Part shown: piece by piece, positions 3,021 through 58,746 of the stretch
How positions within the stretch are numbered: the stretch's first letter is position 1
How the letters are laid out: every line of letters starts with the position of its first letter
Virus record (IMG/VR): IMGVR_UViG_3300020045_000790
Span: 1-60,577 of that record
Reading direction: 5' to 3' (one strand)
DNA length: 60,577 bases
Source: a virus
Taxonomy: Duplodnaviria > Caudoviricetes
Notes under the pieces: generated by a model
The model's input: only the letters and a program-made list of their open reading frames with translations
The model's database searches: none
Told to the model about the DNA's origin: nothing
Program-made: the position numbers and the translations under genes

Positions 3021-3176
3021 ATGAAAAAGATAGCATTATTCACACTACTTACTTTCTTAGCATTGTTTTTAAGTGTATGGGCATTCAACCACATTGACGC
3101 TTGGGTTGGAATTATTGGAGCGTTGGCAACTATCTATGTTGTCGTATCAGAATTAGTAAATAAAATTAACAAGTAA
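3021..3176 (+). CDS. 51-aa membrane protein with two hydrophobic helices (not in ORF track)
   Basis: MKKIALFTLTTFLALFLSVWAFNHIDAWVGIIGALATIYVVVSELVNKINK. Confidence 0.6.
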   Translation: MKKIALFTLLTFLALFLSVWAFNHIDAWVGIIGALATIYVVVSELVNKINK

Positions 3177-10722: not shown

Positions 10723-11125
10723 AACCGAACAAGATTTAATCAGAGAGAAAAAAGCAATTCAAACATTTGTAAATATGTTTGGTGGCTCATTTAAAAAACT
10801 TGACCCGTATGATATTGACTATAAAATATTTGATAAAGACGGGAATTTAATAGCCTATGCTGAGGTTAAAGGGAGAATCAGAACAATATACAACGCCTAT
10901 CCTCTTCCGGTAGCAGCAAGAAAATTAGTTAAGTTGGTAGATAAAAGATTAGCACCTGTAGTTATATGGGCTTGCGAAGATGGGATTATCTATGGTAAGG
11001 CAGATAAATTAAAAGGAGACATCAGGTGGGGCGGTAGAGCCCCACGAGATAACTCCTTCAATGATACAGAACTTATGGTCTATTATGAGAAACAAAAAGA
11101 ACTAAAGTATGTAAGATATGTTTAA
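10712..11125 (+). CDS. putative PD-(D/E)XK nuclease
   Basis: IDY...YAEVKGR motif; last gene of the + strand block. Confidence 0.55.
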   Translation: MTFETEQDLIREKKAIQTFVNMFGGSFKKLDPYDIDYKIFDKDGNLIAYAEVKGRIRTIYNAYPLPVAARKLVKLVDKRLAPVVIWACEDGIIYGKADKLKGDIRWGGRAPRDNSFNDTELMVYYEKQKELKYVRYV

Positions 11126-14100: not shown

Positions 14101-17100
14101 AGCCTTAGTATATTCAACATCTTCATCTGTAAATATATCTTTTCCGCTACTTATAGATTCTTTAATCATAGCAGAGTAAACATCAAAAGCTCGTTTTATT
14201 GTAGCTCTTACTATTCCCTCATTGTATTTGTTTGTCTTAGCCTCAGGCTCCAATAGAGCTAACATTTCTTCAGCACTAAACTCAGAAGCATCTACTCCCA
14301 TTAGGTCCTGCAATTCAACAATCATCTCTTCACGAATTTTTTGCTCTTGCTCTTTTAATGTTTCTGAAGTATAATCTGTAACCTCTTGTATGTTTGTGGT
14401 CTCAGCAAATCTAACTTTCTGACCTCTAACAGACGAACCTGTTATAGCTTCTTTTAGTTTTGATGCTATTTCATTGTAAGTCTCAATATCTTCTACTAAT
14501 GAAGGGTCGATTTTAGTAAATTGAGAAGCCGCTATTCTAAGGTTAGCATTTTTATCTTTGTTCTTAGATAACTTTTTTAAGCTACTTCTAAATCCTTTTG
14601 CATCTTTTATTTTAGCAGAATAATCTGCGTTCTCAAAAACCTTAGTCATATAGGTAGTAAATCTATCTACAGACTTAGCACTAAATACATTTACTTTACT
14701 AAAAGCACGTATAACATTTGCAGCTTGGTCTGAAGTAATTTTACCTGACGCTTTTAATTCTTTAACATCTTTACTAAGTTGTTGACTTGCTAATTTAAAA
14801 GCTCTAACAGCATCTCTCGCACCTCTCGCTAAATCTTTAATTTGTTTTTTAAGAGCTACTTTTTCAGTCATTGTAATTTTTTTGACATCTTTAATCTTGC
14901 CAAATAATCTTGCAACTGACGGTGCAGCTTTCTCTCTTAAACCAAATCTTTTGCGAATATCACGCACCAAAGCCTCACGCTGTACATCTGTGGCGTTTTC
15001 ATAAACTTTTGAGCCCATAACATAGCTAATAACATTATCTGCTATTTTAGCCTCGTTTACGCCTCTTCTTTTAGATTTCTGCACGATACCTTCAACCTCT
15101 CCCATCATTCTGTCATATCCGGGTAAGTCTTGTTCGTTTATTTCTTGAGAAACGTTTTCCTCTGCTAAGTTTTCAGCGACCTCAGTCTCAGCCTGCGTAT
15201 CTCCCGCAAGACCCTCTGTCCAAGTCCACTCAGGCATAAGCCCTGTCTTTTGGTCAGCAAAAACTGTATCTTCAACTTTGGCAGTTCTGTTGTTCTCTCC
15301 TTCAGGACCGTAGTTAAGCCAAGAGTTTTGACCTCTTGTCTCACTTGTGATAGCACCTTTAGCAGGACCTGTAAACAATCTGATATGAGCCTGCCAAGCA
15401 TTCTCTTCTCCTCTTGCTCTAAATCCTGCACCTTCTAATCCGTGTCCAAAAGCATCGTGTACAGCTCTGAATAAATCGTTAGCAAGAACGGGCATCTTAG
15501 GTCCGTCTAATCCTCCAACGCTCCATTCAAATCCTGTCTCAGCTAAAAGCGGATTATCATTTACATCTAATTCGCTTGTACCGAAACCTTCAACAGTTGG
15601 GAAAACACCCATTTGTTTGTTTTGGCGTAAATCACGCATAGCATTATATGGACTTGCCGCATACTCAACATTACTTGGTATGTCCAAATCCATAAACCAA
15701 AACTTATATCCTGCATCAACTAACGCTTGATATTGAGCAATGGTCTGTTTGATAAGCTCAGCGTATGCTTCTTTTACTTTTGGGTTCTGAGGGTCGTGAG
15801 CCATTTCTTCGTAAGCCTGTGCTATACGCTGAGCTCTTTCCTCATCAACTTCTACATACTCTGATTGTCGCTTGAGGTCGATTCCATTGTCGGCTGCGTA
15901 TTGTTCTGCAACGCTGACAAGTTGCGGGTCCGGTCCTGTTGCCCCTTGTATTGTTGGCGAACCTTCAAGAGGCGTAATTTCCCTGCTATCAGTCCGTCCT
16001 GTTCTGTCTCCGGTGCGTTCGGGTTGTACTGTTGGTTGTTGTCCTGTTTCATTTTGTGTTTTTATTTGAGTTGTTGGTTGTGTCTTTGAAGACACTTGTT
16101 CTTCGATGATAGTTTGCGGTGCAGTCGCAGGAAGTAAACTTTCAACAGCTTTTACTAATTCAGGGTTACTTCCGTCTTCCTTAGCTATTTTATAAGCCTG
16201 TGCTATAGATGACGTATCACTTATGCTATATTGTTCACTTGGCATTAATTGTTCTCCTTCAATATCTAAAACTAAAGGAAGAGTCTCTTCTAATATTTTT
16301 GCATCTATGGAGTCTAATGATTGAACTACAGAATCTACATTTACCTCCGGTTGAGTTTCTGTAACAGGTTTATTTGAATTAATATATTCTTTAACCTGAT
16401 TAACACTTTCGTTAATTACTTCTTTTCCCTTTAAATCAGATTTTGTAACTTCATCTAATATGGCTTTTATACCTTCAGATGTAGATGTATTACCATTAGG
16501 AATAATAAATTCAAAAGTATTTGTAGCAGACCTTCCAAAATTATCTGAAGAAGGAGTTATTATTGTTAGTAATTTATTTCCATCATCTGAAACTGTATCT
16601 TCTGCAATTACTGATTTGTATTCATTCAAATCTTTTTGTTGCTCAACAGGTAAAAACCCTCTTCCGTCTTTAGGGGTAACTATATCTTCTGCATTTATTC
16701 CTTCTGAATATTGCAATCCAAATCCATTTACAGCTCCGTGAACAACAATAGTAGGCTCTTTTACTTCTTCTTGCGTAGCTTGCTCGGTAATGATTTCAGG
16801 TTTTGGTTCGGATATTCCTTCCGCCACCGTTTCGCTAATTCCGGTTTCTGACTGAACAGGAATCGCTGTTGTGCTTTGCTCTTGAATGGCATTTGTCTCG
16901 CTTAATTTAGTTAGTGAATCATTTATTTCTGCAATTCTATTTTTTTGCTTTACAACTAAGGCAGGGTCTTTCTCGTTGATATAGTTTTCTAAATCTCTTT
17001 TTTCTTTTAAAAGATTCATAGCTTCTTTTTTACCTTGAGTGTCAATACCATCAGGTAATTGTCTGAACAATCCAACTGAATTTCTATAATCGTTCAATTG

Positions 17101-24104: not shown

Positions 24105-27100
24105 TTATAATAAACATTCACAAGATACAAAAAAGATAGTTACATTTACCGAAGGGTTTAATGAAACAGGGTATCCTATACTGCATACATTAGTTATAGC
24201 ACCTGCTTGAATAACAACTTCTTCGTATATTCCAAATTCGTTGTATAGTCCAATTAACCCATCAACAGCGTTTTTTGAATTATTTACTTCGTACATATTG
24301 TACGGAGAATCGCAATCTTCATCGCACTCACAGCAAACATCAAGTGCACTTGTTCCGAAGCACAAAGATACTTCAACTGCACAAGGTTTACAAGTTTGAG
24401 CAGGCAATAAAACGCCATCTACTAATTCACGAACAATACCACCAAAAGAATAGAATCCATTTGGTGCGAATGTAGTCATATCAGAATCTAAAAATATTGA
24501 TGTTGAATTTGCAAAAGAAGCATTCAAGTAATAATTACCCGGAGTACAATCGCAACAAGCATCTATTGCTGTAGCTGCAAAACATAACTCAGCAAGTATA
24601 GCATCTCTTAAATCCCAAATCAAATACAAGTAATCTCCATTTACACTTGCAGGAACAATAAAGTCTGCGTAGAATAATGGTGTACTTCCTGCGTTTGGAG
24701 TAGCTGTAGTCGATGCCGCCAATAAAGCCTGAATATCAATATCGTTATTATTAAACAGCACAGGACTTCTAAAGTATTTAAACTTATCCTGAGCTAAATC
24801 AAAGTTGAAAGTATCAGGTGCTATCTTATTGGTTGACAGCCTCATAGTACTTCCTCCTGTAGGGAATCCTCCCGACCCAACAAAACCTGAAGTTATATTA
24901 TATCTTGAAACAAGTGGCGTTGATGTGCCGCTTCCAAAAACAACTAAGTTAGATAATAACGGACCGATAAAAGCACCGTCAGTATATCTGTACTGAGTAT
25001 GAATGGTTTGTCCTGCCTCTGAATTATTTGTAAGTACAACCTCAACTATATTTAAAGGTTCTGCCTCACAGCAATTAGCCAATATAGAAACAACCATATC
25101 TCCTGTATATGTTATGGTTATATCTGCTGTTTCAACTGATATATTATCTTTATTAAAGAATATACTTCCACTAACACTAACAGGTCCTGAAGAAACTACA
25201 GTACCGTCATAACTTACTTCAACAGTTAAAGTGGCTCCCGACTCAATGCTTGATATTACCCAACTAACTTCTGTAGTTCCTACAAGAGGACCTAAATCAA
25301 CGCAATAAGAAAAACTTTCTCCTTGCACACTATTAGTTGACAAAGTAAATGTTTGACTTATACCACAATTTAAACACTGAGGATTTGTAGGCAACATTTC
25401 TTCGTTCATACTTAAAACGTACTCATTCATATAAGGGTCAAATCCTCCAAGTTTTTGAGTATTAAAAGAAGCATTGAATGTGTCTCTAAACCAAGTTCTC
25501 ATACTTTGCTCAGATATTACTACTAATTGGTCGCTTGGTCCTGAATCTCCTTTTATTTGAAGTACAGCACCACGTTTTACGTCAGTAAAATACCTGTCAT
25601 ATCCCCATTGAACATAGCTTTCAGGATTGAAACTAATACCGTACTTCTCAGTACGAGCTATTTGCGTTCCTAATACCTCAGGAGTAGCTGTAATTATATT
25701 TCCTGCACTTGCATCAGACAATAGGTTTTTACCCGCTAAAACGTAAGATATTTTATCTTCCTGTAAAGTAAGTACGTCTGTCTCTCTTCCGTCTAATATA
25801 AATATTTCTCCAAAAGAAGCCTCGCAGTTTTTGTAGTTAACTAATCCTTTGTTGAACTCATTAAGTCTATTTACATTTGTCTCTAAGTTGTAATTACCGC
25901 TATATGTAATGTCAGCAAATCTATCTGCTTCTTTATAGTCCTGTTCTGCTACAGTGGTAACACGCTCTCCTAAATTGAAACTTCTTCCAATAATAGAATC
26001 ACGAATCTTATAACTTTCAGCACCATTTCCGAATGAAAAACAGTTAAAGAACTCAGTATCAACAATTCCCGGTACAGACCCTGTTTGGTTTTGAACATTA
26101 CCTAAATGGTTTCCATTAGCATCAATTCCGAATGATAAGTTATTTTCAAAGAAAACGTCAGGTAAAGCATCTTGAGGTTCAGTTTCAAATATAATTAAAT
26201 CAACTGCTCTAAATACTTCAAACTTTGCAGTTACACAATACTTTCTTGAATTTGGATAACCTACTCCTGTACAACTTTTTCCTGAAGACATTTGTAGTAT
26301 TAATGCGTTTGTAGCAGGGTTTCTATAGAACTGAAGATACATTACGCTAAAGTCAACCGAACTTAAAACACCATTTGCTGCTATATACTGCAAAGTTGTA
26401 CTTCCATCTTTAGATGTTCCTGTATCTAATAACTGAGCTACATTATCTCCATTCCACCAATCTGCAAAATTGTCATAATCTGTAGATGAAGTTAATCTTC
26501 TATTAAACTCATATCCTCTTCTTTCACAAGAGTTTCCAACACCATTTCTATTCCAATCCATACCAAGATTAATAATACTTCCCGCAGGAATTGAGTAATC
26601 TATGTACATTCCCGGATTTGCAGGGTCAGGAATATTTACGAGATAAGATAATATAGTATAGTTACCACCTTTAGGAGCACATCTTGCGTGAAGACCTAAA
26701 TCTATAATAGCATTAGGGTCAAGAACAGCAGAAAAACTATTTGGATTAATCTTGATGTATAAACCTGCCGGGACAGTAACGTCTCCTACGGGGTCAATAA
26801 ATCCCGATGCCTGTGCTTGCTTATCTAACACAGTTGCATAAGCACAATTCTTTTTAGGACCATCAGTATCAGCCTTAACTATAAGCCTGTCTCCTACCTC
26901 AACTTTTTTAGTATTTTCTCCTTCTAAATAAAACCATACAGAATTACTAAGTGGGTCTGTAAAGAATAAATTAGAGTAAATTGTTTCGTAATTTTCTTCG
27001 TCAGGCTTAATAACGAACTTATATCTTTTAGCCCAATAAGGAGCTCTTTGAGTAGGTGGTATTGTTACACGTATTGAGTTCTTGTTTGCAGAAAATCCAC

Positions 27101-28934
27101 AAGCAATATGAACCGCATTATTTGGACTAACTAAAGCTGTAGAAGCTCTATTGTATTCGTCCATATAAACAATACCTATTTCATAACCTCTGTTACTATG
27201 TAAGCTTCTTGGATTACCTATTTCTTGAAAAGTGGCATCTGCAAAGCTTATGGTATAATATTCATAAATAGACCCTGTTGGTGCTGTTGGATTATCAACA
27301 TACTTCATTGAAAGAATTTGAAAACCAATTTGTGTACTTGCAGGAGAAGTAATTATTTTTATAGGCTGATTAACTCCTGTAATACCACTACCTACTTTCT
27401 GTAAAGAATCTAAGTTATTTGGTAAAATACAATTGAAAGCATCTGTAAAAGTAATACCATCGCAAGAAGTTTCAGCTCCCGGAACTGCACTATATACAGG
27501 TAAAATGTTTGCTACCGTACCAACAGCTTCTTGGAACTCAACACTTGATGCTAAAGCATATACAGATGAGTAATCCGCATTTAAAAAGAAATCAAATGAA
27601 ATTTCAGTATTATCTGTAGTCTCTGCCGGAAAAGGAAGACTTCCTGAAAATGAACTATGTGAAAAAGTTATTGTCATTGTAATAAATGACCCCGCAATAA
27701 GGTTTGCTGCTGCTAAGTCTATATACACTACAGAGTTAGGAACAGTAACAAAACCATTTATTTGATAATCTCCCGACACTACATTGTCAGGTACATTAGT
27801 AGTACCGATTTCTTCTGTTATAAATGTAGGTAAATATTCAAATTTTACAGACTGACCGTTTTTATCAACTAAGTCGTATCCTTCTACATAGTTTCCATAC
27901 ATAAGTCTATTGCCCATAATAGTTTGAGCTTTAGCAAATCGAGGAACATTATCGTAAAGTCTTAGAATTTCAGAAGAATTAAGAACGGTAAATATCTTGC
28001 TGTTATTGAAAGAGAATTGCTGAATTTGATTATCTCCAATTCCCAAGTCTGCTTTGTTGATTTTCTCAATAACTTTTATGATATTGTTATTTGATTGCTT
28101 AAATAGCAAATCAATACCTACAACCAAAGGTCCTCCCGAATTATAATTAACAATAGCTGTGTTGCAGAAATTAGTCATACCCTCATTAAGCATACTGTTT
28201 ATGCTAAACTGAAAAGGATTTGGTATAAACGCAATATCAGACCATTGAGACGTAGCAGAGTACTCTCCGTTTTCATATTCGTATCTGTAAGCAAACGATA
28301 TAAATCTATCTTCTAAATAATTCTCCTGACCACTTGTTGTAATCAATTCAACAGTAGGCGATTCAGTAGGTGGCTTCTTTATAACAAGAAGAGATTCTGC
28401 TGAAAATTGGTCTATATTACCTATAGGATTCGCATAATTCTTTTTGATATTGATAACTCTTGGAGGGTTGTAATCGTCTGTGAAAAACAATAAATCCTCA
28501 ATTATATCTACACCTGTGATAAGGTATGTTGAATTAAAATTAAGAGTGGTATCAACGTTTCCCCCGTCATTAATACTTATTACGTGGTAGGCAAGGACAT
28601 CTGTATGTACATTATAAGACACTATTAAATCGAGTCTTCCCGTAGCTCCAACTGTAAAAGTTGGGTCGTGAACAAACCAATAGATTGTCTCTCTTGCACT
28701 ATCTTCTATAGCACCAATACATCTTGCATTCGGACTAAGAAGAGTTCCGTCTATATATTTCAACGAAGTAAGTGGAAGATTCCCCTTGGTATTTTCTATA
28801 ACACCAATTTCAGAATTTTCAGTAGAACCCATTCTGACGTTCATAGCATCAATGTATTCTCCATCAGGAACTAATCGTTCATCAACGACTTTATTCATTC
28901 TTCCTGCTATAAAATTTCTTGTTATGTTTGCCAT
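24105..28934 (-). CDS. tail nozzle / stabilisation protein (1609 aa)
   Basis: NFIAGRMNKVVDERLVPDGEYIDAMN start, GNRLMYGNY, YGISFNPES, GGFDPY motifs of Bacteroidota podovirus tail proteins. Confidence 0.7.
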   Translation of the reverse strand: MANITRNFIAGRMNKVVDERLVPDGEYIDAMNVRMGSTENSEIGVIENTKGNLPLTSLKYIDGTLLSPNARCIGAIEDSARETIYWFVHDPTFTVGATGRLDLIVSYNVHTDVLAYHVISINDGGNVDTTLNFNSTYLITGVDIIEDLLFFTDDYNPPRVINIKKNYANPIGNIDQFSAESLLVIKKPPTESPTVELITTSGQENYLEDRFISFAYRYEYENGEYSATSQWSDIAFIPNPFQFSINSMLNEGMTNFCNTAIVNYNSGGPLVVGIDLLFKQSNNNIIKVIEKINKADLGIGDNQIQQFSFNNSKIFTVLNSSEILRLYDNVPRFAKAQTIMGNRLMYGNYVEGYDLVDKNGQSVKFEYLPTFITEEIGTTNVPDNVVSGDYQINGFVTVPNSVVYIDLAAANLIAGSFITMTITFSHSSFSGSLPFPAETTDNTEISFDFFLNADYSSVYALASSVEFQEAVGTVANILPVYSAVPGAETSCDGITFTDAFNCILPNNLDSLQKVGSGITGVNQPIKIITSPASTQIGFQILSMKYVDNPTAPTGSIYEYYTISFADATFQEIGNPRSLHSNRGYEIGIVYMDEYNRASTALVSPNNAVHIACGFSANKNSIRVTIPPTQRAPYWAKRYKFVIKPDEENYETIYSNLFFTDPLSNSVWFYLEGENTKKVEVGDRLIVKADTDGPKKNCAYATVLDKQAQASGFIDPVGDVTVPAGLYIKINPNSFSAVLDPNAIIDLGLHARCAPKGGNYTILSYLVNIPDPANPGMYIDYSIPAGSIINLGMDWNRNGVGNSCERRGYEFNRRLTSSTDYDNFADWWNGDNVAQLLDTGTSKDGSTTLQYIAANGVLSSVDFSVMYLQFYRNPATNALILQMSSGKSCTGVGYPNSRKYCVTAKFEVFRAVDLIIFETEPQDALPDVFFENNLSFGIDANGNHLGNVQNQTGSVPGIVDTEFFNCFSFGNGAESYKIRDSIIGRSFNLGERVTTVAEQDYKEADRFADITYSGNYNLETNVNRLNEFNKGLVNYKNCEASFGEIFILDGRETDVLTLQEDKISYVLAGKNLLSDASAGNIITATPEVLGTQIARTEKYGISFNPESYVQWGYDRYFTDVKRGAVLQIKGDSGPSDQLVVISEQSMRTWFRDTFNASFNTQKLGGFDPYMNEYVLSMNEEMLPTNPQCLNCGISQTFTLSTNSVQGESFSYCVDLGPLVGTTEVSWVISSIESGATLTVEVSYDGTVVSSGPVSVSGSIFFNKDNISVETADITITYTGDMVVSILANCCEAEPLNIVEVVLTNNSEAGQTIHTQYRYTDGAFIGPLLSNLVVFGSGTSTPLVSRYNITSGFVGSGGFPTGGSTMRLSTNKIAPDTFNFDLAQDKFKYFRSPVLFNNNDIDIQALLAASTTATPNAGSTPLFYADFIVPASVNGDYLYLIWDLRDAILAELCFAATAIDACCDCTPGNYYLNASFANSTSIFLDSDMTTFAPNGFYSFGGIVRELVDGVLLPAQTCKPCAVEVSLCFGTSALDVCCECDEDCDSPYNMYEVNNSKNAVDGLIGLYNEFGIYEEVVIQAGAITNVCSIGYPVSLNPSVNVTIFFVSCECLL

Positions 28935-39314: not shown

Positions 39315-39881
39315 TTATCTATAAAACATTACATAAACCATTCTACCTTCTTTCCAACCTGTATTTGGATACTTGCTATGAAAATAATTTGACGGATACA
39401 TTAATGCCCTATTTGGTCTATAGCCAACAACAGAGTGTAAATCCCAATTATCTAATTGATTAGCTTCCTCTAAGAGAAATCTATTCGCTTCTTCGTCAGA
39501 CACATCGAGAGGCATTTCATATCCAATCTCTTTGTGTTTCCAAAATGCAGTTCCGTGAAGTCCTTCTTTAGTCGATGGAGATATATATAACACCAAAGCT
39601 CGTTCAGGTCTAATGTCTCCTACTTTTGAGTCTGCGTGTATTCTCCAATCAGTATCTAATTCTTCTGTAGCTACTCTAAAAAACCCTAATAAGCATTCTC
39701 TTTTCACTCCATCTATTTCACTTAACTTATCAAGAACTAAATTGTCAAATTCCTCATTAGTATATTGCACCCAAAAAGGTTTATCTCCTACTTCAACTTT
39801 TACAAATTCATTATCTGATAAATGTTGATAAACAGATTCGTATATTTCTTTGTCTAAAAAATCATCTACAATATTTATCAT
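39315..39881 (-). CDS. 2OG-Fe(II) oxygenase
   Basis: IVDDFL, HAD (HxD), GTAF, NRALMY...FHS, distal R. Confidence 0.75.
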   Translation of the reverse strand: MINIVDDFLDKEIYESVYQHLSDNEFVKVEVGDKPFWVQYTNEEFDNLVLDKLSEIDGVKRECLLGFFRVATEELDTDWRIHADSKVGDIRPERALVLYISPSTKEGLHGTAFWKHKEIGYEMPLDVSDEEANRFLLEEANQLDNWDLHSVVGYRPNRALMYPSNYFHSKYPNTGWKEGRMVYVMFYR

Positions 39882-40441
39882 AGCTTCATAGTTATTTGGT
39901 GGTCATACATTCTGTACATCTTTTCTCCTTCAACAGTAAATTCATATTCGCTATCAGGTTTAAAACATACAAGGTCTCCTGAGTTTATTCCTTGACTAAT
40001 CAAGTATTCGTTTGGATATACCATCTTAGCCATAAGAGGCTCTTCTTTAAATGGTTTCTTGATATATGATTCAATTGCCGGAATTGGCTTCACAAAACAA
40101 TATCTATCGTACGCAAACCACTTATCTTTCTTATTGTACATAAAGAATTGGTCTGTTTCAATAAAGAACAAGTCGTCCTTAAAAAAGCTCTTTCCACTTT
40201 TCTGACGACCTCGCATATCGTTATAATATTTGAAAGCGTTGTGATGCACAAGCAATGTGTCTCCTATTTCTATAGGACCGGTATAGCCTAATGGTAATTC
40301 AACAACTTCAGCATAGCGGTTAGAAAATTTAGAATCCTCTTCTGAGGTGCTTACTATAAACTCTATTCCTGCTATGTTTTTTGTATTGTCGTATCGTTTT
40401 CCATTTTTAGGCTTTGCAATAAAGTAAAATGGAGATTTCAT
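39878..40441 (-). CDS. tandem GroES-like domain protein
   Basis: Two GroES-like repeats (IEIGDTLLVH; INSGDLVCF...FTVEGEKMYRM). Confidence 0.55.
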   Translation of the reverse strand: MKSPFYFIAKPKNGKRYDNTKNIAGIEFIVSTSEEDSKFSNRYAEVVELPLGYTGPIEIGDTLLVHHNAFKYYNDMRGRQKSGKSFFKDDLFFIETDQFFMYNKKDKWFAYDRYCFVKPIPAIESYIKKPFKEEPLMAKMVYPNEYLISQGINSGDLVCFKPDSEYEFTVEGEKMYRMYDHQITMKL

Positions 40442-51360: not shown

Positions 51361-51520
51361 TGGCTACTATTATGTTCATTCCTAATGACCCTCCAATCTC
51401 AAGCAAGTCGTGGTATATATTCAAGCTCAGATGAACGTGCCCTACCACCCAAAATGGGATTGATAGGTTGCACGCTATCCAAACTATAGTGAATCTAAAG
51501 AACCTCTTCAGCTTGCTCAT
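51305..51520 (-). CDS. small membrane protein
   Basis: Two hydrophobic segments; overlaps the groEL end. Confidence 0.5.
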   Translation of the reverse strand: MSKLKRFFRFTIVWIACNLSIPFWVVGHVHLSLNIYHDLLEIGGSLGMNIIVAIGFWFNWKDESKDYDKRD

Positions 51521-53123
51521 AACTACGAGCCATTGTTATAATTGCATTTGTACTCAAGATTGTTACAGCTACACTCACTGCATTTTGTAACGCACTTCGA
51601 GTTACCTTCAGTGGGTCAATAACACCCATCTTAATCAAGTCGCCCATCTGTCCGGTTTTCAAGTTGTAACCGTGCCCCGGCTCTACAACATCAGGATATA
51701 CATCTGAAGCTTTCAGTCCTGCGTTAGCAAGTATCTGTAAGAACGGAGCCATAAGTGCATCTCTAAGAACAGCAACTGCAATATTGTACTCAGCACTTTT
51801 TCCTTCTTGATGGTTGCTGAACATAGCAGCACTCTCTTCAAGTAATGCCTTACCTGCACCCGTCAAAATACCTTCCTCTAAAGCTGAGCGAACTGCACAA
51901 ACAGCATCATCAACTCTATCGTATAGCTCTTTTTGCTCTAAATCAGTCTGTCCACCAACGTAAATTACGCCAATTCCTCCTGTAAGTGAAGCAATTCTCT
52001 CTAACAAGAAGTCTTTGTCTGCTTTTTTGGTAGCGTTTTTATGTGCTTCCCACAATTGGTCCACTCTTTCTTGCACTGCATCTTCGTCCAATCTCAAATC
52101 AGACTTGATAATCACAGTTTTATCTTTACTGACAATCACTTTTGCTGCGTGTCCTAAGTCTCCGAAGTTGATAATACTTAAATCGTCCCCTGTTTTCTCA
52201 CTGAAGTACGTTGCACCAACACTAAGAGCGATGTCTTGCATCAACTCGTGCTGCTTATATCCGAAACTTGGAGGAGGAACTGCACATACTTTCAGATTTC
52301 CCTTCACTGAGTTCGCTGCCAACGTGTTTACCACATTCGCATTACACGGAGAAATAATCAATAGCTTCTTTCCTTCAGAAATAATTGGCTTCAATATGTT
52401 CTCAATCTGCAAAATGTTCGCAATCTCCATATCAGCAACCAATACCATAGTGTCTTCAAGGACACATTCGTCTTTCTTATGGTCATTGATGAACATAGAG
52501 CTCATATAACCTCTGTCAAACTTCAATCCCTTGGTGGTCTCAGCATAAGTCTCATCGTTTTGGCTTCTCTCAACCGTTACAATACCACTTTTACCAACGT
52601 CTTTGTACACCTCAGCAATAATTCGCCCGGTCTCACGGTCATTGTTCGCTGAAATACTTGCTACATCTACCAACATTGAAGTCGTTAACCTCTTGCTCTT
52701 ACGTCTTAGGTTATCCACCACGTTGTCGCTCAGTTCCACCAATGCTCTCAACACCTCTGTTCTGTTGTGCTCTTCTTTAATTTGGTTTAATCCACCCAAT
52801 ACTAAAGCCTCTGTCAAGACAATCGCTGTAGTTGTTCCGTCTCCCGCATTTGTAGCGGTACGCTCAGCAGCCTCTTTCATCATCTTAACCGCAAGGTTCT
52901 CAACAGGGTCAAATAAATCAATACTCTTAGCAACCGTTACTCCGTCTTTCGTTACAGTAATCCCGTGCGTGTGATTAGGACTCTCAATAAGAACAGTATT
53001 ACCACCCGGTCCTAATGTACTCTTTACAGACTTAGCCATTTTGGCTACACCATTAGCTAATTTCTTTCTTCCTTTATCCTCAAAATGTAAATCTTTTGGG
53101 GAATAACCTTGATTTTGTGTCAT
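51495..53123 (-). CDS. groEL: phage chaperonin GroEL
   Basis: TLGP.G, TKDGVTVAK, GDGTTTA, FDRGY, GVIDP.KVTRSALQNA; lacks the GGM tail. Confidence 0.95.
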   Translation of the reverse strand: MTQNQGYSPKDLHFEDKGRKKLANGVAKMAKSVKSTLGPGGNTVLIESPNHTHGITVTKDGVTVAKSIDLFDPVENLAVKMMKEAAERTATNAGDGTTTAIVLTEALVLGGLNQIKEEHNRTEVLRALVELSDNVVDNLRRKSKRLTTSMLVDVASISANNDRETGRIIAEVYKDVGKSGIVTVERSQNDETYAETTKGLKFDRGYMSSMFINDHKKDECVLEDTMVLVADMEIANILQIENILKPIISEGKKLLIISPCNANVVNTLAANSVKGNLKVCAVPPPSFGYKQHELMQDIALSVGATYFSEKTGDDLSIINFGDLGHAAKVIVSKDKTVIIKSDLRLDEDAVQERVDQLWEAHKNATKKADKDFLLERIASLTGGIGVIYVGGQTDLEQKELYDRVDDAVCAVRSALEEGILTGAGKALLEESAAMFSNHQEGKSAEYNIAVAVLRDALMAPFLQILANAGLKASDVYPDVVEPGHGYNLKTGQMGDLIKMGVIDPLKVTRSALQNAVSVAVTILSTNAIITMARSYEQAEEVL

Positions 53124-53250
53124 TTGATTAAATTTTAAATTGATATGTGCAAATATAGTACATAAAATCTGTAATACCTATACCAAAAATAAATAAAATT
53201 GCGAGAATTTTATAAAATCTCGATATATCTATAAACTTACTGTGTAAGTC

Positions 53251-53452
53251 TATGACGGAATGTCAAAATTTTTTTTCCTATATATATATATATAATTTCC
53301 TTTTATATATAATAACTTTCTATTACAGTTTATCTTTTTTTTCAACATAATCGACATAAAAAGAATAATATATTAATAATCAGTTAGTTACAAAAAATAA
53401 AACGACATAAAAAATAACATAAAATAAAGAATCTATGTCGATAATCAACATA
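53251..53452. other. putative origin element B (second copy of the 4.7 kb element)
   Basis: TATGACG, TTTCC(TA)8AT, IHF-like AATCAGTTAGTTA 53378-53390, several CRACATAA repeats. Confidence 0.5.
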
Positions 53453-53500
53453 AAAAAAGGAGACACATAAGCATCTCCTAAATTTTAAAGTAAGAATAGA

Positions 53501-53731
53501 CTAATCACAATCAGAACACTCTCCCATTTCAGACATCATCTCGCCCATAGCTGTACCCTTAGCTACAATCATAACCTTCTCAGCTCGCTTCATAGACTTT
53601 CTAATGTCAGAAGCTTGAGCAATGCCCGTTTGACCATCAGGACGATTGTTAATCAATCTCCCGTTTCTAACAGTTAATCCATCGAACTTAGAACCCGAAT
53701 AGATACTGTCGCTTGTGGCGGGGCTTCGCAA
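53501..53731 (-). CDS. small protein, 5' end possibly truncated
   Basis: ORF starts at TTG at the strand switch; followed by a hairpin at 53458-53479 and a T run on the minus strand. Confidence 0.45.
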   Translation of the reverse strand: MRSPATSDSIYSGSKFDGLTVRNGRLINNRPDGQTGIAQASDIRKSMKRAEKVMIVAKGTAMGEMMSEMGECSDCD

Positions 53732-54299
53732 GGTTTTTGCGGTGTCTTTGAAGACACAAATTGATGAGCTTATTTTCGTGCTGTCTGTTCACTATGCGTG
53801 CGTGCGTGCGTGGGCTGTTGATTGCGTGGCTAATTGGTTTGCATCAGAAGAGGGCAAACAGGCAACAGCCGAAGCAGGTATCTATTGGAGTAATGAAGCC
53901 ATAGGCTTAAAGGTTTTTGGGTGGCAAAAATCGTATTACTACAAAGTATTAAAAGCAGGTAAATTGGACGATGCAATCATCGAGGAGTTTAACAGCCTTT
54001 GCGACCAAGCCGAAGCACAGGGTCAAGAGCCAAACAGAAGTTTAGAGGGCTTGCTTAAATTCACTCGCTCAGGAGGTGGAGAAACCACAGGCGAAGCAGG
54101 TGGAGAAGAGACAGAAGAGGGAGAGGGAGAAGCCACAGAGAGAGCTATCGAGGTTAGAATACCTACAATTTTCACGATGACGTACAAAGGTGGCGAGAAA
54201 AACGTTTCAGTTCGTGTAAACGAAAATAACGAGGTAACGACTACCAACAGCCGAGAGGAAATCTTAGCAGCAATAGAATTTTTAACTAATTTAATCTAA
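53715..54299 (+). CDS. hypothetical early protein, N-terminus uncertain
   Basis: Protein-like from about ANWFASEEGK onward; first ~35 codons run through the palindrome and (GCGT)n. Confidence 0.5.
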   Translation: MAGLRKVFAVSLKTQIDELIFVLSVHYACVRAWAVDCVANWFASEEGKQATAEAGIYWSNEAIGLKVFGWQKSYYYKVLKAGKLDDAIIEEFNSLCDQAEAQGQEPNRSLEGLLKFTRSGGGETTGEAGGEETEEGEGEATERAIEVRIPTIFTMTYKGGEKNVSVRVNENNEVTTTNSREEILAAIEFLTNLI

Positions 54300-54334
54300 T
54301 CAGTGTCTTCAAAGACACACAAATTTCAATCATT

Positions 54335-55252
54335 ATGAGTGCAACAGGCGTAGTTTACACAACAACAGGAGAGAGAAGCAGAGGTACAATTGCAGGATAC
54401 CACAACAAGCCGAACCCTTTATTTTTAAACAAATCAGCCCACAGGGTAGATGTAGCAGGGTTGAAACCAATCGACCAAAGAACAGCTATCAAGTTTGACG
54501 GCAGAGAGTACGAGAGTAAATTTACAATCGGTTTCGAGGTAGAGAAAAACAGCCTATCACGTAGGGCGGTTAAGGAGTACGAATTGTTTTGTGGTTTTGA
54601 GACGGACAGCTCTTGCGGTTACGAAGCGGTTACTCACATTTTACCCTTGTTACCTTGCGGTCAGTGGAGAACAAAAGTTTACGATATGATGTACAAAGCG
54701 GACAAAATTATCGACGACAATTTTAGCCCAAGCGACAAAAGATGTGGCGGACACATTACTATCGGAGTTGATGGACTAACAGGCGACGAGATACGTGAAG
54801 CGGTACGCAAAAATTCAGGTATTGTTTTAGCCCTATTCAGAAAACGTTTAAACAATGTTTATTGCGGTGCTAATCGTAGAATGCAATCAAACGACGACGA
54901 GACCTACAACAGCTACTCAGGGAGTGGTGCATATTACAGAACAGGCTCACATTGGAAATATCAAACAGCCCTTGTAAAAGGGTCGTGCCTTGAGTTTCGC
55001 TTAGTGTCTAAGTTTGAGAGCGTGAAGCAAATGATGAGACGATACGAATTGTTTTACGAGTTGGTAAACTACAGCGTAAACAAGCCAAAGGGTACGTTTG
55101 CAGGGTTTCTAAAAGTTATCGAGCCAATCATTGTTTCGATGTACAACGGAGACAAAGACAAAGCCCATAACGTTATGGAGTTGGCGAAACATTTTCAGAA
55201 GTTCATCAACACAGGAGTAATTAGTGAAGAGATAGCAGAGTTCTTAGGGTAA
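54335..55252 (+). CDS. putative amidoligase (COOH-NH2 ligase, glutamine-synthetase-like fold)
   Basis: TIGFEVE, ETDSS..YEAV, CGGHITI, LEFR motifs. Confidence 0.7.
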   Translation: MSATGVVYTTTGERSRGTIAGYHNKPNPLFLNKSAHRVDVAGLKPIDQRTAIKFDGREYESKFTIGFEVEKNSLSRRAVKEYELFCGFETDSSCGYEAVTHILPLLPCGQWRTKVYDMMYKADKIIDDNFSPSDKRCGGHITIGVDGLTGDEIREAVRKNSGIVLALFRKRLNNVYCGANRRMQSNDDETYNSYSGSGAYYRTGSHWKYQTALVKGSCLEFRLVSKFESVKQMMRRYELFYELVNYSVNKPKGTFAGFLKVIEPIIVSMYNGDKDKAHNVMELAKHFQKFINTGVISEEIAEFLG

Positions 55253-55268
55253 TACCTAAGGGCTTTGC

Positions 55269-55317
55269 CCGTCCCTAAGTGAGTGCTTAGGCTGATGAGT
55301 TCAAAAGAACGAAACGG
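55269..55317 (+). ncRNA. hammerhead ribozyme 1 (type III)
   Basis: CCGUC^ / stem I CCUAAG-ugagug-CUUAGG / CUGAUGA / stem II GUUC-aaaa-GAAC / GAA / ACGG. Confidence 0.9.
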
Positions 55318-55337
55318 AAACCTTAAATTCAATTATT

Positions 55338-55529
55338 ATGAAAGCAGAAATTTGTTTAAAATCGTTTAGTGTAGCAGTTATTTATTTGTCTATTGCCTTA
55401 GGTTTAACCTCAGGTTATTTACAGCAGTTTTTTAAATTCAACTCAGTTGATAGCGAAATCTTTATGGCGTTGCTATGCGGTACGTTTGGGCTTTTATGCT
55501 TAGGCGTTTCAATCAAAGTTAAGCGATGA
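55338..55529 (+). CDS. small two-TM membrane protein
   Basis: Two hydrophobic segments; starts 20 nt after ribozyme 1. Confidence 0.6.
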   Translation: MKAEICLKSFSVAVIYLSIALGLTSGYLQQFFKFNSVDSEIFMALLCGTFGLLCLGVSIKVKR

Positions 55530-55569
55530 TAGTGCGGTAACGCAAAGGTCGAGGAGGGCAAACCTCCTC

Positions 55570-55618
55570 CCGTACACAAGTGAGTGCTTGTGCTGATGAT
55601 ACCAAAAGGTTGAAACGG
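55570..55618 (+). ncRNA. hammerhead ribozyme 2 (type III)
   Basis: CCGUA^ / CACAAG-ugagug-CUUGUG / CUGAUGA / U-ACC-aaaa-GGU-U / GAA / ACGG; compensatory changes relative to ribozyme 1. Confidence 0.85.
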
Positions 55619-55637
55619 AAACTTTAAATCAAATCAA

Positions 55638-55832
55638 ATGACAAATTCAAATTTTGTGTCTTCAAAGACACACGCAGAAATCGTAAAATTTCACGAATGG
55701 TTAGAAGCTAACCGAAACATTTACTTAGCAGACAAGCAGAGAATGGACAGAGCTTACAACATAGTCCGAGAGAATGTAGAGCAACAATATACCTCGAGAC
55801 AGCCTGTAAATACAGGGGCTAACAAATTTTAA
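55638..55832 (+). CDS. hypothetical protein
   Basis: AAATCAAATCAAATG start context; 19 nt after ribozyme 2. Confidence 0.6.
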   Translation: MTNSNFVSSKTHAEIVKFHEWLEANRNIYLADKQRMDRAYNIVRENVEQQYTSRQPVNTGANKF

Positions 55833-55852
55833 CAAAATATTAACATTTTAAA

Positions 55853-55885
55853 TTTGGTACGTGTCTAATTCTCGTCTTATATTTG
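55853..55885 (+). promoter_or_regulatory. Bacteroidota sigma-A promoter (-33 TTTG, -7 TATATTTG)
   Basis: 21-nt spacer; near-copy at 57556-57587. Confidence 0.75.
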
Positions 55886-55922
55886 TCGAAAATTAGTTCA
55901 TTAACCTTTAAAACATAACACT

Positions 55923-56477
55923 ATGAGAAAAATAACAGAACAGGTTGTCGGTGCTTTTGAAAACTACAACATAAAAAAAGTAGGTAACACCGAGACAGAC
56001 GGAACGAGCCTTTGGCTATTTGGCAATAAGATTGCAGAACACAGAGCCGACGGAATATGGATTACTAACGCAGGGTGGAGTAGCCCAACAACTAAGGAAA
56101 GACTAAACGGAATTACAGGCGTACACATTACGCAAAAGAAAGGCGAATGGTTTTTGAATGGTCATCGTTGGGACGGAGAGTGGGTTTGCTTGAATGACTT
56201 GACCTTGCTTACGGAACAGGAAAGCGAGACAGATTTTGATACCACAATGGAATGGGTTGATAACTACAGCAGACCGATTTACTCAGTGTACCATACACGC
56301 ATCGAGGCAGAGCTACAGCAGATTGAAATGGTGCTTGCTGTTATGGGAATAGCCACCCGCAGAATGTATTCAGATACGCAAGGTGCTTACAAACCTAATC
56401 ACTTTATCGTCGTACCTGTACAAGAGTTCGAGAGAGCAAAAACTTTTATTAAAAAAGTGTCTTTGGAGACACTATAA
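55923..56477 (+). CDS. hypothetical early protein
   Basis: LFGNKIA...GWSSPTTKERLN motif. Confidence 0.65.
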   Translation: MRKITEQVVGAFENYNIKKVGNTETDGTSLWLFGNKIAEHRADGIWITNAGWSSPTTKERLNGITGVHITQKKGEWFLNGHRWDGEWVCLNDLTLLTEQESETDFDTTMEWVDNYSRPIYSVYHTRIEAELQQIEMVLAVMGIATRRMYSDTQGAYKPNHFIVVPVQEFERAKTFIKKVSLETL

Positions 56478-56554
56478 AACCAATTAACTATGAGAGCAAT
56501 ACTAAGATTTTTGCAAGAGTTAGCAAATGCTTGTCCGAGAGAGACAAAGTGGTA

Positions 56555-56608
56555 GGCAAACTGATGAGACTTCAATAGTCGAAACCCGATTTAGTTCGGG
56601 TCTTTGTC
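56555..56608 (+). ncRNA. hammerhead ribozyme 3 (type I)
   Basis: GGCAAA / CUGAUGA / GACU-ucaau-AGUC / GAA / ACCCGA-uuuagu-UCGGGU / C^ / UUUGUC. Confidence 0.9.
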
Positions 56609-56629
56609 AAACAATTAAAAATTAAAACT

Positions 56630-56848
56630 ATGAGAATTATTGTAGAGTATTGCCCAAACATTTCAAAAGATGCACAGAAAATTATTAGAGACAACGTAAC
56701 ACCGTCTATGATTTCAAATGACGAAACGAGTTGTCAGTATGAGATTAGTATGTGTTTAGAAGAGTTGATTGAAAACGATGTATGTGTTGAAGATTATAAA
56801 GTTATAACTTCTTTAATAGAACAGGGCGTTAGCTATTTAGAATTTTAA
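56630..56848 (+). CDS. small acidic hypothetical protein
   Basis: ORF track; 21 nt after ribozyme 3. Confidence 0.6.
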   Translation: MRIIVEYCPNISKDAQKIIRDNVTPSMISNDETSCQYEISMCLEELIENDVCVEDYKVITSLIEQGVSYLEF

Positions 56849-56853
56849 ATAGT

Positions 56854-57018
56854 ATGGAAGAGATTTGGTACTTTGAAGATTGGGTAAACGAGATGCTTAA
56901 CCAATCAGACTATTCAGAATTTGAGTTGATGTGCTTTGAAGAGTATTATCAAAACTTATTAGACTATGAACAAAATACAGAAAACTTTTTAAATAGAATT
57001 TCAGATGAAGAAGATTAG
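56854..57018 (+). CDS. 54-aa highly acidic protein (not in ORF track)
   Basis: MEEIWYFEDWVNEMLNQSDYSEFELMCFEEYYQNLLDYEQNTENFLNRISDEED. Confidence 0.55.
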   Translation: MEEIWYFEDWVNEMLNQSDYSEFELMCFEEYYQNLLDYEQNTENFLNRISDEED

Positions 57019-57403
57019 AATTACTAAAGAAGACCAATTCGTTTGGCTTATAGTTACAGAAAAAGCAAAGGAGATTTTCCTTTCAGGCTTATTCGAGCTG
57101 TATATAATCTACAGCGATGATAGTGAGTGTTTAATCGAAGGCTTCGGTCAATTGATTGAAGCGATTGAGGACGGACAGGACATAGGCATAGAGGTCGGAT
57201 TTATCAGCGATGACATAGACTTGTTCGACCACTACAGCAGAATACCTAAGAAGATTAGATATATCATTGAGACCTACACAGACGCTTCAGAGTTCAGTGC
57301 AGACGATTGCAAAGCTATGCTCAAAGACTTAGAAGCTAATGGATACACCTTTGACTATGGATTAGACTTTCAACCTATTAACCTTAGACCAAATGGAGAA
57401 TAG
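57005..57403 (+). CDS. acidic hypothetical protein
   Basis: ORF track; C-terminal GYTFDYGLD motif. Confidence 0.6.
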   Translation: MKKIRITKEDQFVWLIVTEKAKEIFLSGLFELYIIYSDDSECLIEGFGQLIEAIEDGQDIGIEVGFISDDIDLFDHYSRIPKKIRYIIETYTDASEFSADDCKAMLKDLEANGYTFDYGLDFQPINLRPNGE

Positions 57404-57554
57404 TCATACATTTAGAATTACCTATGACAAAAATTTTGTTTGTTATGTGATAGCCCGAACAGACTTCGAGGCGATTGACAAAGTTTACAACAGAAACTTA
57501 GACCAACCCCCTGACTTATTCAGAAAACTTTTTAATGCAAAAAAATTAAAATAA
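57393..57554 (+). CDS. 53-aa hypothetical protein (not in ORF track)
   Basis: MENSHTFRITY...FNAKKLK; overlaps the upstream stop. Confidence 0.45.
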   Translation: MENSHTFRITYDKNFVCYVIARTDFEAIDKVYNRNLDQPPDLFRKLFNAKKLK

Positions 57555-57555
57555 A

Positions 57556-57587
57556 TTTGGTAGTGTATAAATTTTGTCTTACCTTTG
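57556..57587 (+). promoter_or_regulatory. Bacteroidota sigma-A promoter (-33 TTTG, -7 TACCTTTG)
   Basis: 20-nt spacer; followed by a palindrome copy at 57617-57632. Confidence 0.75.
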
Positions 57588-57654
57588 TCTAAATTTAATC
57601 AAATAATCAGAGTTCTGTGTCTTCAAAGACACTGCTCACAAATCAAATCAAACT

Positions 57655-58746
57655 ATGTGCGTAATTATCGTAAAAAAAGCAGGACTAAAAGTTCCAACAG
57701 AAGTATTAAAATCATCAGCAAAAATTAACCCTCACGGATTAGGTATCGTGTGGCTTGACGATTACAGAGTTACCTATCACAAATCATCAGAGTACGCCAT
57801 ACTCGACACCGACAAACCTTACATTGCTCACTTTAGATATGCGACCGTTGGTGCTATCGGCAGGTCAAATACACACCCCTTTGTGTGTGGCTCAAACAAG
57901 AACGAGTTGCTTATGATGAATGGAACAATCAAAGGACTTGGAAACCTAAAAGATAGCGACAGCAAGATATTGGCTAATTCGCTTGGAAAAGTTTCGAGAC
58001 ACCTGTGGAAAAAAGAATTAGAGCGTTACGATTGCAGGTTCGTTACACTTAACACACGCAACAAATCGTATCAGATGTACAACAAACAAGATTGGCATCA
58101 CAAAGACGGAGTTTGGTACAGCAAGGATAATGTACTTGAGACCAACTATGTGGCTGTATATGGTACATTGAAAAAGCATTATAGCAACTATTGGGGCTAC
58201 CTTACAGCTTCATCGTTTATAGGTAGCGGTAACACACAGGACAAGTATCCGCTTATCATCAAGGGATTGCCTTACCTAATAAACAAAAAAGGCACAGGAC
58301 ATAAAGTTGCTGTAGATGTATTCAGAGTTACCGACAGAGTTCTTAAAGATTTAGATACTTTAGAGGGACACCCTGTTTGGTACAAGAGAGAGCAGATTTA
58401 TATTGACGTGAAAGGTAAAAAAGTATTGTGTTGGATTTACTTCAACTTACGTGAGACAGACATAGGTCAAGTACACCATAAGACATATACTCAAGCACCT
58501 AAGGTTTGGAATAGTCCGTCTCCTTACAAGTGGAATTACCCTACCAAAAATTTATTCTCAAATACATACATTGATGACTTTAGAGATTTACCTGAGGTAG
58601 ATGACGAGTTCGATGTAGAGAATGAAATACCTATGTGCGTAGCTTGTTACAATGATTTAGAGTTCGATGGTTTCAATCTATACCATTGCCAACAATGTAA
58701 TACGTGGCACACAGAAACAGATGTTTTAAAAAGTTTTAATTACTAA
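57655..58746 (+). CDS. class II glutamine amidotransferase fused to a gamma-glutamylcyclotransferase (AIG2-like) domain and a Zn ribbon
   Basis: Cys2 (MCVII), NPHG.G, HFRYAT, NTHPF, NG, DS; VYGTLK...LDTLEG..Y.R; CVAC...CQQC. Confidence 0.8.
   Translation: MCVIIVKKAGLKVPTEVLKSSAKINPHGLGIVWLDDYRVTYHKSSEYAILDTDKPYIAHFRYATVGAIGRSNTHPFVCGSNKNELLMMNGTIKGLGNLKDSDSKILANSLGKVSRHLWKKELERYDCRFVTLNTRNKSYQMYNKQDWHHKDGVWYSKDNVLETNYVAVYGTLKKHYSNYWGYLTASSFIGSGNTQDKYPLIIKGLPYLINKKGTGHKVAVDVFRVTDRVLKDLDTLEGHPVWYKREQIYIDVKGKKVLCWIYFNLRETDIGQVHHKTYTQAPKVWNSPSPYKWNYPTKNLFSNTYIDDFRDLPEVDDEFDVENEIPMCVACYNDLEFDGFNLYHCQQCNTWHTETDVLKSFNY

Follow-up and report, generated by a model that had tools for sequence, protein, structure and literature searches.

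What do hammerhead ribozymes do when several of them lie between the small genes of one phage? The question is raised by a viral DNA of 60,577 bp with 35% G+C (IMG/VR record IMGVR_UViG_3300020045_000790; this whole stretch is hereafter the window), which is the complete or near-complete record of a ~60 kb, lytic-type podophage of Flavobacteriia. Three hammerhead motifs, designated HH1, HH2, and HH3, are located within 1.4 kb in its intergenic gaps, all on the coding strand. Perreault 2011 (PMC3088659) described multiple hammerheads that flank single genes in prophages and proposed that they convert long transcripts into single-gene mRNAs, and a later review repeated the processing idea while noting that the purpose of these ribozymes is still undefined (Weinberg et al. 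2019). The window is a good test bed for this question and not a new kind of element. The reading that we favor, and hold to be rather probable from its sequence and those of its relatives, is that the three motifs are genuine self-cleaving hammerheads that would cut a nascent multi-gene RNA between its cistrons, with both products keeping useful ends.

All three motifs have the conserved core CUGAUGA...GAAA and a UC or UA site. HH1 is built from stem III (CCGU/ACGG), a 6-bp stem I with the loop UGAGUG, CUGAUGA, stem II (GUUC-AAAA-GAAC), and GAAA. HH2 is a paralogue of HH1: loop I (UGAGUG), loop II (AAAA), and stem III are the same in both, and both bases are exchanged in two pairs of stem I and two of stem II. 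The stem II of HH2 consists of 3 bp and a U.U mismatch beside the core, at 10.1/11.1 (55600 and 55611), and this pair is G-C in both HH1 and HH3. The stems of HH3 are GGCAAA/UUUGUC (I), GACU/AGUC (II), and CCCGA/UCGGG (III). The distances from the ribozyme ends to the ATG codons are 20 nt (55338), 19 nt (55638), and 21 nt (56630) for HH1, HH2, and HH3, respectively.

A descriptor consisting of the core CUGANGA...GAAA, a closed stem II, a type I or type III closure, and a UH site was scanned over both strands of the whole window, and it matched exactly three times, at HH1, HH2, and HH3. In 300 dinucleotide-preserving shuffles, the mean was 0.053 matches; at least one match was obtained in 15 shuffles, and three or more in none, which excludes a chance origin of the three motifs. 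An earlier sequence-only reading of this DNA had named the three ribozymes with their types, cut sites, and ATG gaps, all of which were borne out by the descriptor scan and by our own reading of the sequence. Both hairpins that it had placed upstream of HH1 and HH2 are also present, the second directly abutting its ribozyme. Hairpin 1 recurs with a different loop in the related records L050/L184. What is found here is the arrangement of a clustered array, that is, at least two close hammerheads flanking single genes on the gene strand of phage DNA.

Positions of the ribozymes and of the features around them (L050/L184 are related records)
Feature	Position	Strand	Remarks
305-aa ORF	54335..55252	+	5' of HH1; function unknown; no Pfam or PHROG match
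Hairpin 1	55238..55265	+	core CUUAGG-GUAAUA-CCUAAG at 55243-55260; folds as 11-bp stem; 3 nt to HH1
HH1	55269-55317	+	type III, GUC site; predicted scission between 55273 and 55274
Leader, 20 nt	55318..55337	+	A/U-rich, G-poor; HH1 to start codon
63-aa ORF	55338..55529	+	between HH1 and HH2; hydrophobic segments at about residues 5-28 and 39-61
Hairpin 2	55551..55569	+	GAGGAGG-GCAAA-CCUCCUC; 0 nt to HH2; identical copy in L050/L184
HH2	55570-55618	+	type III, GUA site; predicted scission between 55574 and 55575
64-aa ORF	55638..55832	+	3' of HH2; holds GTGTCTTCAAAGACAC palindrome at 55656-55671
Promoter-like motif	55853..55885	+	Bacteroidota-type (TTTG, 21 nt, TAnnTTTG); within 90-nt gap 5' of 184-aa ORF
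Conserved 21-codon micro-ORF	56491..56556	+	UAG stop overlaps first base of HH3 stem I
HH3	56555-56608	+	type I, GUC site; predicted scission between 56602 and 56603
72-aa ORF	56630..56848	+	3' of HH3; phrog_14999, unknown function; start 27 nt past HH3 cleavage site
Second promoter-like motif	57556-57587	+	TTTG, spacer, TAnnTTTG; intergenic gap
Plus-strand block	~53.7 kb to end, then 1-11 kb	+	many small ORFs of unknown function, then Sak-type annealing protein, exonuclease, primase, helicase
Minus-strand block	~11-53 kb	-	portal, terminase, virion proteins, crAss-type muzzle-like protein, tail, endolysin, GroES/GroEL

Both types belong to families that recur in other viruses. For type III, we used a pattern that begins at loop I, fixes only the two loops, CUGAUGA, and GAAAC, and leaves the stems free. 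It matched 58 loci in viral contigs (60 distinct contexts). In every context, the unselected 11 nt on the 5' side of the pattern (the 5' strand of stem III, the UH site, and the 5' strand of stem I) complete the fold: six bases are complementary to stem I, the site is UC or UA, and a further strand can pair with the bases that follow GAAA. Alignment A2 comprises 49 sequences; of its 686 cells, 98.1% are paired, and changes on both sides are seen in 11 of the 14 pairs. None of 500 shuffles reached these values, and slid partners were paired in only 36-52%. The core is invariant in A2, as it is in the type I alignment A3 (see below), although in both it is partly fixed by the search patterns. 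At the second pair of stem III, two variants dominate the family (CG in 26 and UA in 19 sequences of A2).

Model R1, built from A2, gave 74.3 bits for HH1 and 72.3 bits for HH2, both of which are in the build set. When R1 and the corresponding type I model, R2, were run over the whole window with filters off, no further copies were found above 13 bits; therefore, the ribozymes in the window are three. In 30 related records, R1 gave 71 matches, with 1-5 per record on one strand and within a few kb. Because these records were mostly chosen for a prior pattern match, the figure of 29 of 30 is not a prevalence, and it is the multiplicity and clustering that are informative. The copies found by the model only, outside the pattern, retain a loop I similar to UGWGUG, and their loop II is rich in A (AAAA, GAAA, or AAGA), a conservation that would fit a conserved loop-loop or pseudoknot contact between stems I and II. 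In a one-per-species collection of bacterial and archaeal genomes, the type III pattern gave 6 matches, all in metagenome-assembled bins, and the family is not evident in prophages of the genomes scanned.

The type I family leads to cultured phages. Among deposited phages, DNA-level matches to the window were found only in one uncultured podovirus and in 68 Flavobacterium Elemovirus records, and the sole match to the latter is the HH3 region: 56489-56621 is ~80% identical to the Elemovirus records, and the flanking genes are without match. In Elemovirus elemoA_7-9A, the core and stems I and II are identical to those of HH3, and stem III is fully replaced but still paired. A pattern of the core and stem II matched at least 122 viral loci, and simple rules give a type I closure in 89 of the 104 distinct contexts. 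Alignment A3 (41 rows) comprises 39 of the 73 distinct closures, chosen by length, together with the window and the related record L144. In A3, 9 of the 15 pairs change on both sides; its paired fraction of 99.8% is circular because the rows were preselected for closure. R2 recognized HH3 alone in the window (66.1 bits; HH3 is in its build set) and gave 24 matches in 12 of the 30 related records, two of them weak (21.1 and 19.7 bits). Type I copies are interleaved with type III copies: record G020 has one type III and four type I in 3.4 kb, and G027 has two of each in 3 kb. The Elemovirus record that we examined in detail (L002), with its type I copy at about 3062-3125, also has one type III copy (L002:1278-1328), located 17 nt 5' of a start codon. 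With HH3-type ribozymes in 68 Elemovirus records, there are cultured relatives in which the function is testable in a real phage-host pair.

The ribozymes are placed in a regular manner with respect to the genes. In 62 type III contexts, the 3' end of the ribozyme lies 18-48 nt (median 23) from the ATG of an ORF with 30 aa or more, and the distance is 18-29 nt in 57 of them. The 40 nt on the 5' side have a median folding energy of -17.8 kcal/mol, compared with -4.5 in 367 control windows from the same loci; values of -10 or lower were observed in 53/62 and 31/367, respectively. The hairpin ends 0-1 nt from the ribozyme in 51/62, and of the nine weaker cases four still have a minimal 6-bp hairpin. 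The leaders between ribozyme and start codon (n=62) consist of 52% A, 29% U, 15% C, and 4% G, compared with 22% G across the loci, and a Shine-Dalgarno-like 4-mer is present in three of them. In contrast, the type I copies (88 contexts) have no excess of upstream hairpins (-10 or lower in 2/86; median -3.85 against a control of -3.8). Here, the stop codon of the upstream ORF ends between -6 and +5 nt from stem I in 62/86, and the median distance from the cut to the following ATG is 27 nt. One type III copy of Elemovirus, which follows a divergent intergenic region and has neither a same-strand upstream gene nor a strong hairpin, fits the rule as a single case.

Cleavage would leave the ribozyme with the downstream RNA in type III and with the upstream RNA in type I. 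The placement rule is therefore that the next start codon always lies just past the last structure and that a stable structure terminates the upstream product in every case. This family-wide architecture, with a hairpin at type III, none at type I, and a fixed distance to the ATG, is the new element here. The rule, with its structures and the next start codon about 20-27 nt further on, predicts selection on the ends of both cleavage products. The linkage between ribozymes and genes that the earlier reading suggested looking for in relatives is indeed conserved. The order of 305-aa ORF, hairpin, type III hammerhead, 63-aa ORF, hairpin, and type III hammerhead is kept in records L184 and L185, so that the whole HH1-gene-HH2 cassette is syntenic. 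In L184-L187, for which the ORFs were listed, type I and type III copies lie on the strand of the small ORFs that they separate.

In the reading that we favor, cleavage would be constitutive and co-transcriptional, splitting the multi-gene RNA into messages with defined, structured ends. HH1 and HH2 would cut at their 5' edge. The upstream mRNA would then end in the stable hairpin and five nt with a 2',3'-cyclic phosphate (hairpin 1 would form this 3'-terminal structure at HH1), and the downstream mRNA would begin with a 5'-OH and the folded ribozyme, followed by a ~20 nt A-rich, G-poor, unstructured leader and the start codon. HH3 would cut at its 3' edge, leaving the ribozyme body as the structured 3' end of the upstream message, and the downstream message would begin 27 nt before the ATG. 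The short 4-bp stem III would let the 5' product leave, making the cut effectively irreversible. The outcome would be discrete mRNAs whose stability and translation are independent of the neighboring sequence. To our knowledge, the host group mostly initiates translation without the lead of a Shine-Dalgarno sequence; therefore, an insulating role of a structured element in front of an unstructured leader is a concrete hypothesis.

In the early region of phage T7, RNase III cuts between cistrons and produces discrete early mRNAs with hairpin 3' ends. There, a host protein enzyme leaves 5'-phosphate and 3'-OH ends, whereas the RNA proposed to cut itself here would leave 5'-OH and 2',3'-cyclic phosphate ends. 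The closest match for the proposed working of the type III copies appears to be RiboJ, an insulator that Lou et al. in 2012 reportedly engineered from a plant satellite RNA ribozyme, with a hairpin downstream of the ribozyme. RiboJ is said to have a closed stem I and to lie just 5' of the translation start, where it cuts off variable RNA on its 5' side and so provides a defined structured 5' end and context-independent expression. It differs in that its hairpin is 3' of the ribozyme; here, the hairpin is 5' and would stay with the other product.

Among natural hammerheads, the arrays of Perreault 2011 are the nearest relatives in arrangement: in phage DNA, closely spaced hammerheads of more than one type flank single genes or short blocks. 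Cleavage in vitro was shown for three clustered prophage arrays, one of which, the ardA array of Agrobacterium tumefaciens, was cleaved in E. coli as well. Those arrays are found in prophages of Proteobacteria and Clostridia, whereas ours are in lytic-type podophages of Flavobacteriia and comprise two sequence families that Rfam models do not detect at threshold. The same paper describes HHphage of the haloviruses HF1/HF2, likewise a hammerhead a short way (13 nt) 5' of an early start codon in a tailed virus; the 5' end of a transcript was mapped to a position no more than 3 nt from its cut site. HHphage differs as a core-insertion variant adapted to high salt, present as a single copy at the transcript start and not as an intercistronic series. 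In Lopez-Galiano et al. 2026 (PMC13725137), self-cleavage of 5'-UTR hammerheads of RNA mycoviruses, likewise just 5' of an ORF, is linked to translation initiation. These are eukaryotic RNA viruses with cap-independent translation. The family-wide placement fits the proposal of the sequence-only reading that the transcript is processed into stable units by intercistronic cutting and hairpin capping, but the processing idea itself is not new and was published by Perreault 2011. The positional rule distinguishing type III with hairpin from type I was not found in the available text of that paper. We found no literature on hammerheads of these Flavobacteriia phage families, although the alignment dataset of Perreault 2011 may contain members.

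Several observations weigh against cutting between cistrons. The first is the outcome of the search with Rfam models that the earlier reading had proposed as a check. At gathering scores, the whole window gave 0 matches, and none of the three ribozymes reaches the gathering score of any family. The best sub-threshold match is RAGATH-1-hammerhead (RF03152) at HH3, with 23.7 bits against a cut-off of 56.3. At HH1, the scores were 17.9 against 48.5 for Hammerhead_3 (RF00008), 17.6 against 52 for HH9 (RF02275), and 12.8 against 34 for Hammerhead_1 (RF00163), which gave nothing at HH3. A permissive search returned sub-threshold hammerhead matches together with evident noise (snoR126, bxd_1, and UPD-PKib). 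HH3 and the RAGATH-1 consensus have in common CUGAUGAGACUU...CGAAAC and an upstream hairpin-like stretch. However, HH3 has a normal 4-bp stem II, whereas the model has a reduced stem II and a conserved upstream hairpin. A RAGATH-1-like hairpin 5' of HH3 was rejected: the stretch is the conserved 21-codon ORF, and L185 alters the hairpin bases while keeping the peptide. We have two abundant ribozyme families with strongly supported folds that are missed by standard Rfam annotation at threshold.

The second point concerns the folds. Minimum-free-energy folds with flanks give stems I and II and the hairpins, but the 4-bp stem III is not formed, and HH1 folded alone favors an alternative extension of stem I. 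Therefore, tertiary contacts or stacking are probably needed. The hairpin could also serve only to stack on or stabilize the short stem III and not to protect a 3' end; the contrast between type I and type III fits both of these roles. Ribozymes also come and go among closely related records (at one place, L185 carries an additional type III copy that the window lacks), and therefore no single copy is indispensable. The existence of a single operon is doubtful as well. The block holds the two promoter-like motifs 55853-55885 and 57556-57587, which resemble Bacteroidota housekeeping promoters, and it is for this reason possibly not one transcript; the first is a possible internal promoter. Enrichment of the motif over the window is weak, with 10 matches where 4.49 are expected (3/100 shuffles reach 10). 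Scans of 53000-58000 for sigma-70 promoters and terminators gave numbers close to those in shuffles (17 compared with 13.4, and 7 compared with 3.4) and were left aside.

The remaining points concern transcripts and the U.U mismatch. Three metatranscriptome runs hold 5-18% of the sampled words, as assembled contigs only and from relatives of 90-99% similarity, and these contigs cover parts of the block. One contig extends across the HH3 site by 26 nt and a second one across the HH1 site by 6 nt, and two from a single study end at 55249, which is 24 nt short of the HH1 cut; such contigs cannot reveal RNA ends and could stem from DNA or from uncut RNA. Finally, the U.U of HH2 at 10.1/11.1 is a mispair type that was used as a rejection criterion by Perreault 2011.

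This mismatch also bears on the alternative that survives best, which we consider unlikely but worth stating: the ribozymes would tune or regulate expression, some being slow or conditional, with the ratio of cut to uncut RNA setting the expression of neighboring genes. HH2-type copies (U.U and GUA) would be attenuated, and a ribosome terminating at the stop codon of the micro-ORF would for that time keep HH3 from folding. U.U at 10.1/11.1 is present in 11 of the 49 rows of A2 and 11 of the 62 contexts, and the other three pairs of stem II in these copies still covary, which suggests a tolerated, maintained variant. It occurs only together with A17 (11 and 0, compared with 14 and 37 in the other contexts; Fisher 9e-6, with counts that ignore shared ancestry), and three more U.U copies outside the search pattern have A17 too. 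This form may be a slower ribozyme subtype, or it may mark one paralogue lineage. In L185, the orthologue of HH2 is canonical at this pair (G-C), so that the variant is not tied to that gene. The micro-ORF is conserved in four lineages (the window, L184, L185/L144, and Elemovirus) with synonymous or conservative changes, including a K-to-R made by three base changes, and a ribosome terminating on it would cover the HH3 core. This position of its stop codon, like the stop codons beside stem I in most type I contexts, is what tuning would use; however, where genes are packed this tightly, stops beside stem I are to be expected in any case. Regulated cleavage of slow phage variants was raised by Perreault 2011.

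Less probable still is that the ribozymes are parts of mobile or shuffling cassettes (hairpin, ribozyme, leader, and small ORF) that persist through recombination at the near-identical cores, with little benefit from cleavage. Such cores are indeed repeated 1-5 times per genome, equivalent junctions differ in ribozyme presence among close relatives, and the genes adjacent to ribozymes differ between records. In L184, a second type I hammerhead (L184:3226-3305) carries only the last four micro-ORF codons along on the 5' side of stem I, suggesting that ribozyme copies spread with few flanking bases. A passive cassette does not account well for an orientation that always follows the local gene direction, for the tight spacing to the start codon (57/62, as above), or for the many compensatory stem changes, which indicate that the fold itself is under selection. 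Among the block ORFs scanned with PHROGs and Pfam, none was recognized as an integrase, reverse transcriptase, or homing endonuclease.

We give very little credence to a third alternative, in which cuts at HH1 and HH2 release a 301-nt RNA that is circularized by host RtcB or by hammerhead self-ligation into a stable mRNA for the 63-aa protein. The cuts would give an RNA of 55274-55574 with 5'-OH and cyclic-phosphate ends. The stem III strands of HH1 and HH2 are identical (CCGU and ACGG), as they are in L184 and L185, and the sequence indicates that the 3' end of the RNA could pair with its own HH1 body and rebuild a complete, chimeric hammerhead whose active site holds both ends. It is a long shot that the 3'-terminal CCGUA>p pairs with the HH1 ACGG near the 5'-OH and yields a self- or RtcB-ligated, circular, exonuclease-proof mRNA; if true, this would be viroid-style circularization by a DNA phage, making one early message long-lived. 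However, two stem III variants dominate the family, so that identity is often expected by chance; stem III differs between copies in 3/8 multi-copy records (L029, L032/L033, and L038/L039); and a 4-bp intramolecular contact across ~240 nt is weak. No circle joints were found in the metatranscriptome contigs, which are a weak test. No RtcB, RNA ligase, or polynucleotide kinase was recognized with PHROGs on 54 ORFs (20 + 34) and Pfam on 15. In Perreault 2011, clustered phage hammerheads were searched for products that were circular or spliced, and none were detected. Circularization is unsupported, and the identical stem III strands make self-ligation chemically conceivable. That the three motifs are functionless chance matches to a short consensus is hardly credible: although single matches turn up in some shuffles and no Rfam family reaches its gathering score, the absence of any shuffle with three matches, the confinement of all matches to coding-strand gaps within 1.4 kb, and the recurrence of both families with compensatory base changes in many viral contigs already contradict it.

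The genes that the ribozymes would separate belong to a plus-strand block whose early label we infer from gene content alone; early expression is in this sense presumed. Homologues of the 305-aa ORF in relatives sit 5' of the same hairpin and type III hammerhead module. The product of the 63-aa ORF is likely a small membrane protein, given its hydrophobic segments, and its orthologues are 94% identical in L185 and 56% in L184. Further downstream, a 363-aa ORF (57655-58746, +) has a gamma-glutamyl cyclotransferase domain and an amidotransferase-like N-terminus. In the uncultured podovirus MW202828.1, homologues of the 305-aa and 363-aa ORFs are adjacent to each other, and the two may form one small-molecule or peptide-modifying system. 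On the minus strand, we observed the crAss-type muzzle-like protein (PF25731, 1e-11; 24105-28934), a 2732-aa ORF (11122-19320), GroES (39878-40441), and GroEL (51495-53123). The 2732-aa ORF matched no Pfam family at E up to 0.001, and its sole match is phrog_3170, of unknown function.

One deposited annotation touches the type I family. In L002:3032-3139 (MT497017.1), a minus-strand hypothetical CDS has been placed exactly over the region of the type I hammerhead and the micro-ORF, and this gene call is probably spurious.

A 16-nt palindrome, GTGTCTT-NN-AAGACAC, has 14 copies in the window compared with 0.09 expected. The copies start at 1061, 4207, 8761, 16080, 31705, 38828, 47416, 52450, 53742, 54303, 55656, 56457, 57617, and 58753; about half of the sites are intergenic, and several lie 16-22 nt 5' of a start codon. 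The palindrome is a candidate RNA hairpin, terminator-like element, or protein operator. In relatives, its core lies within the hairpin abutting 32/62 type III ribozymes, where it is usually extended by covarying flanks.

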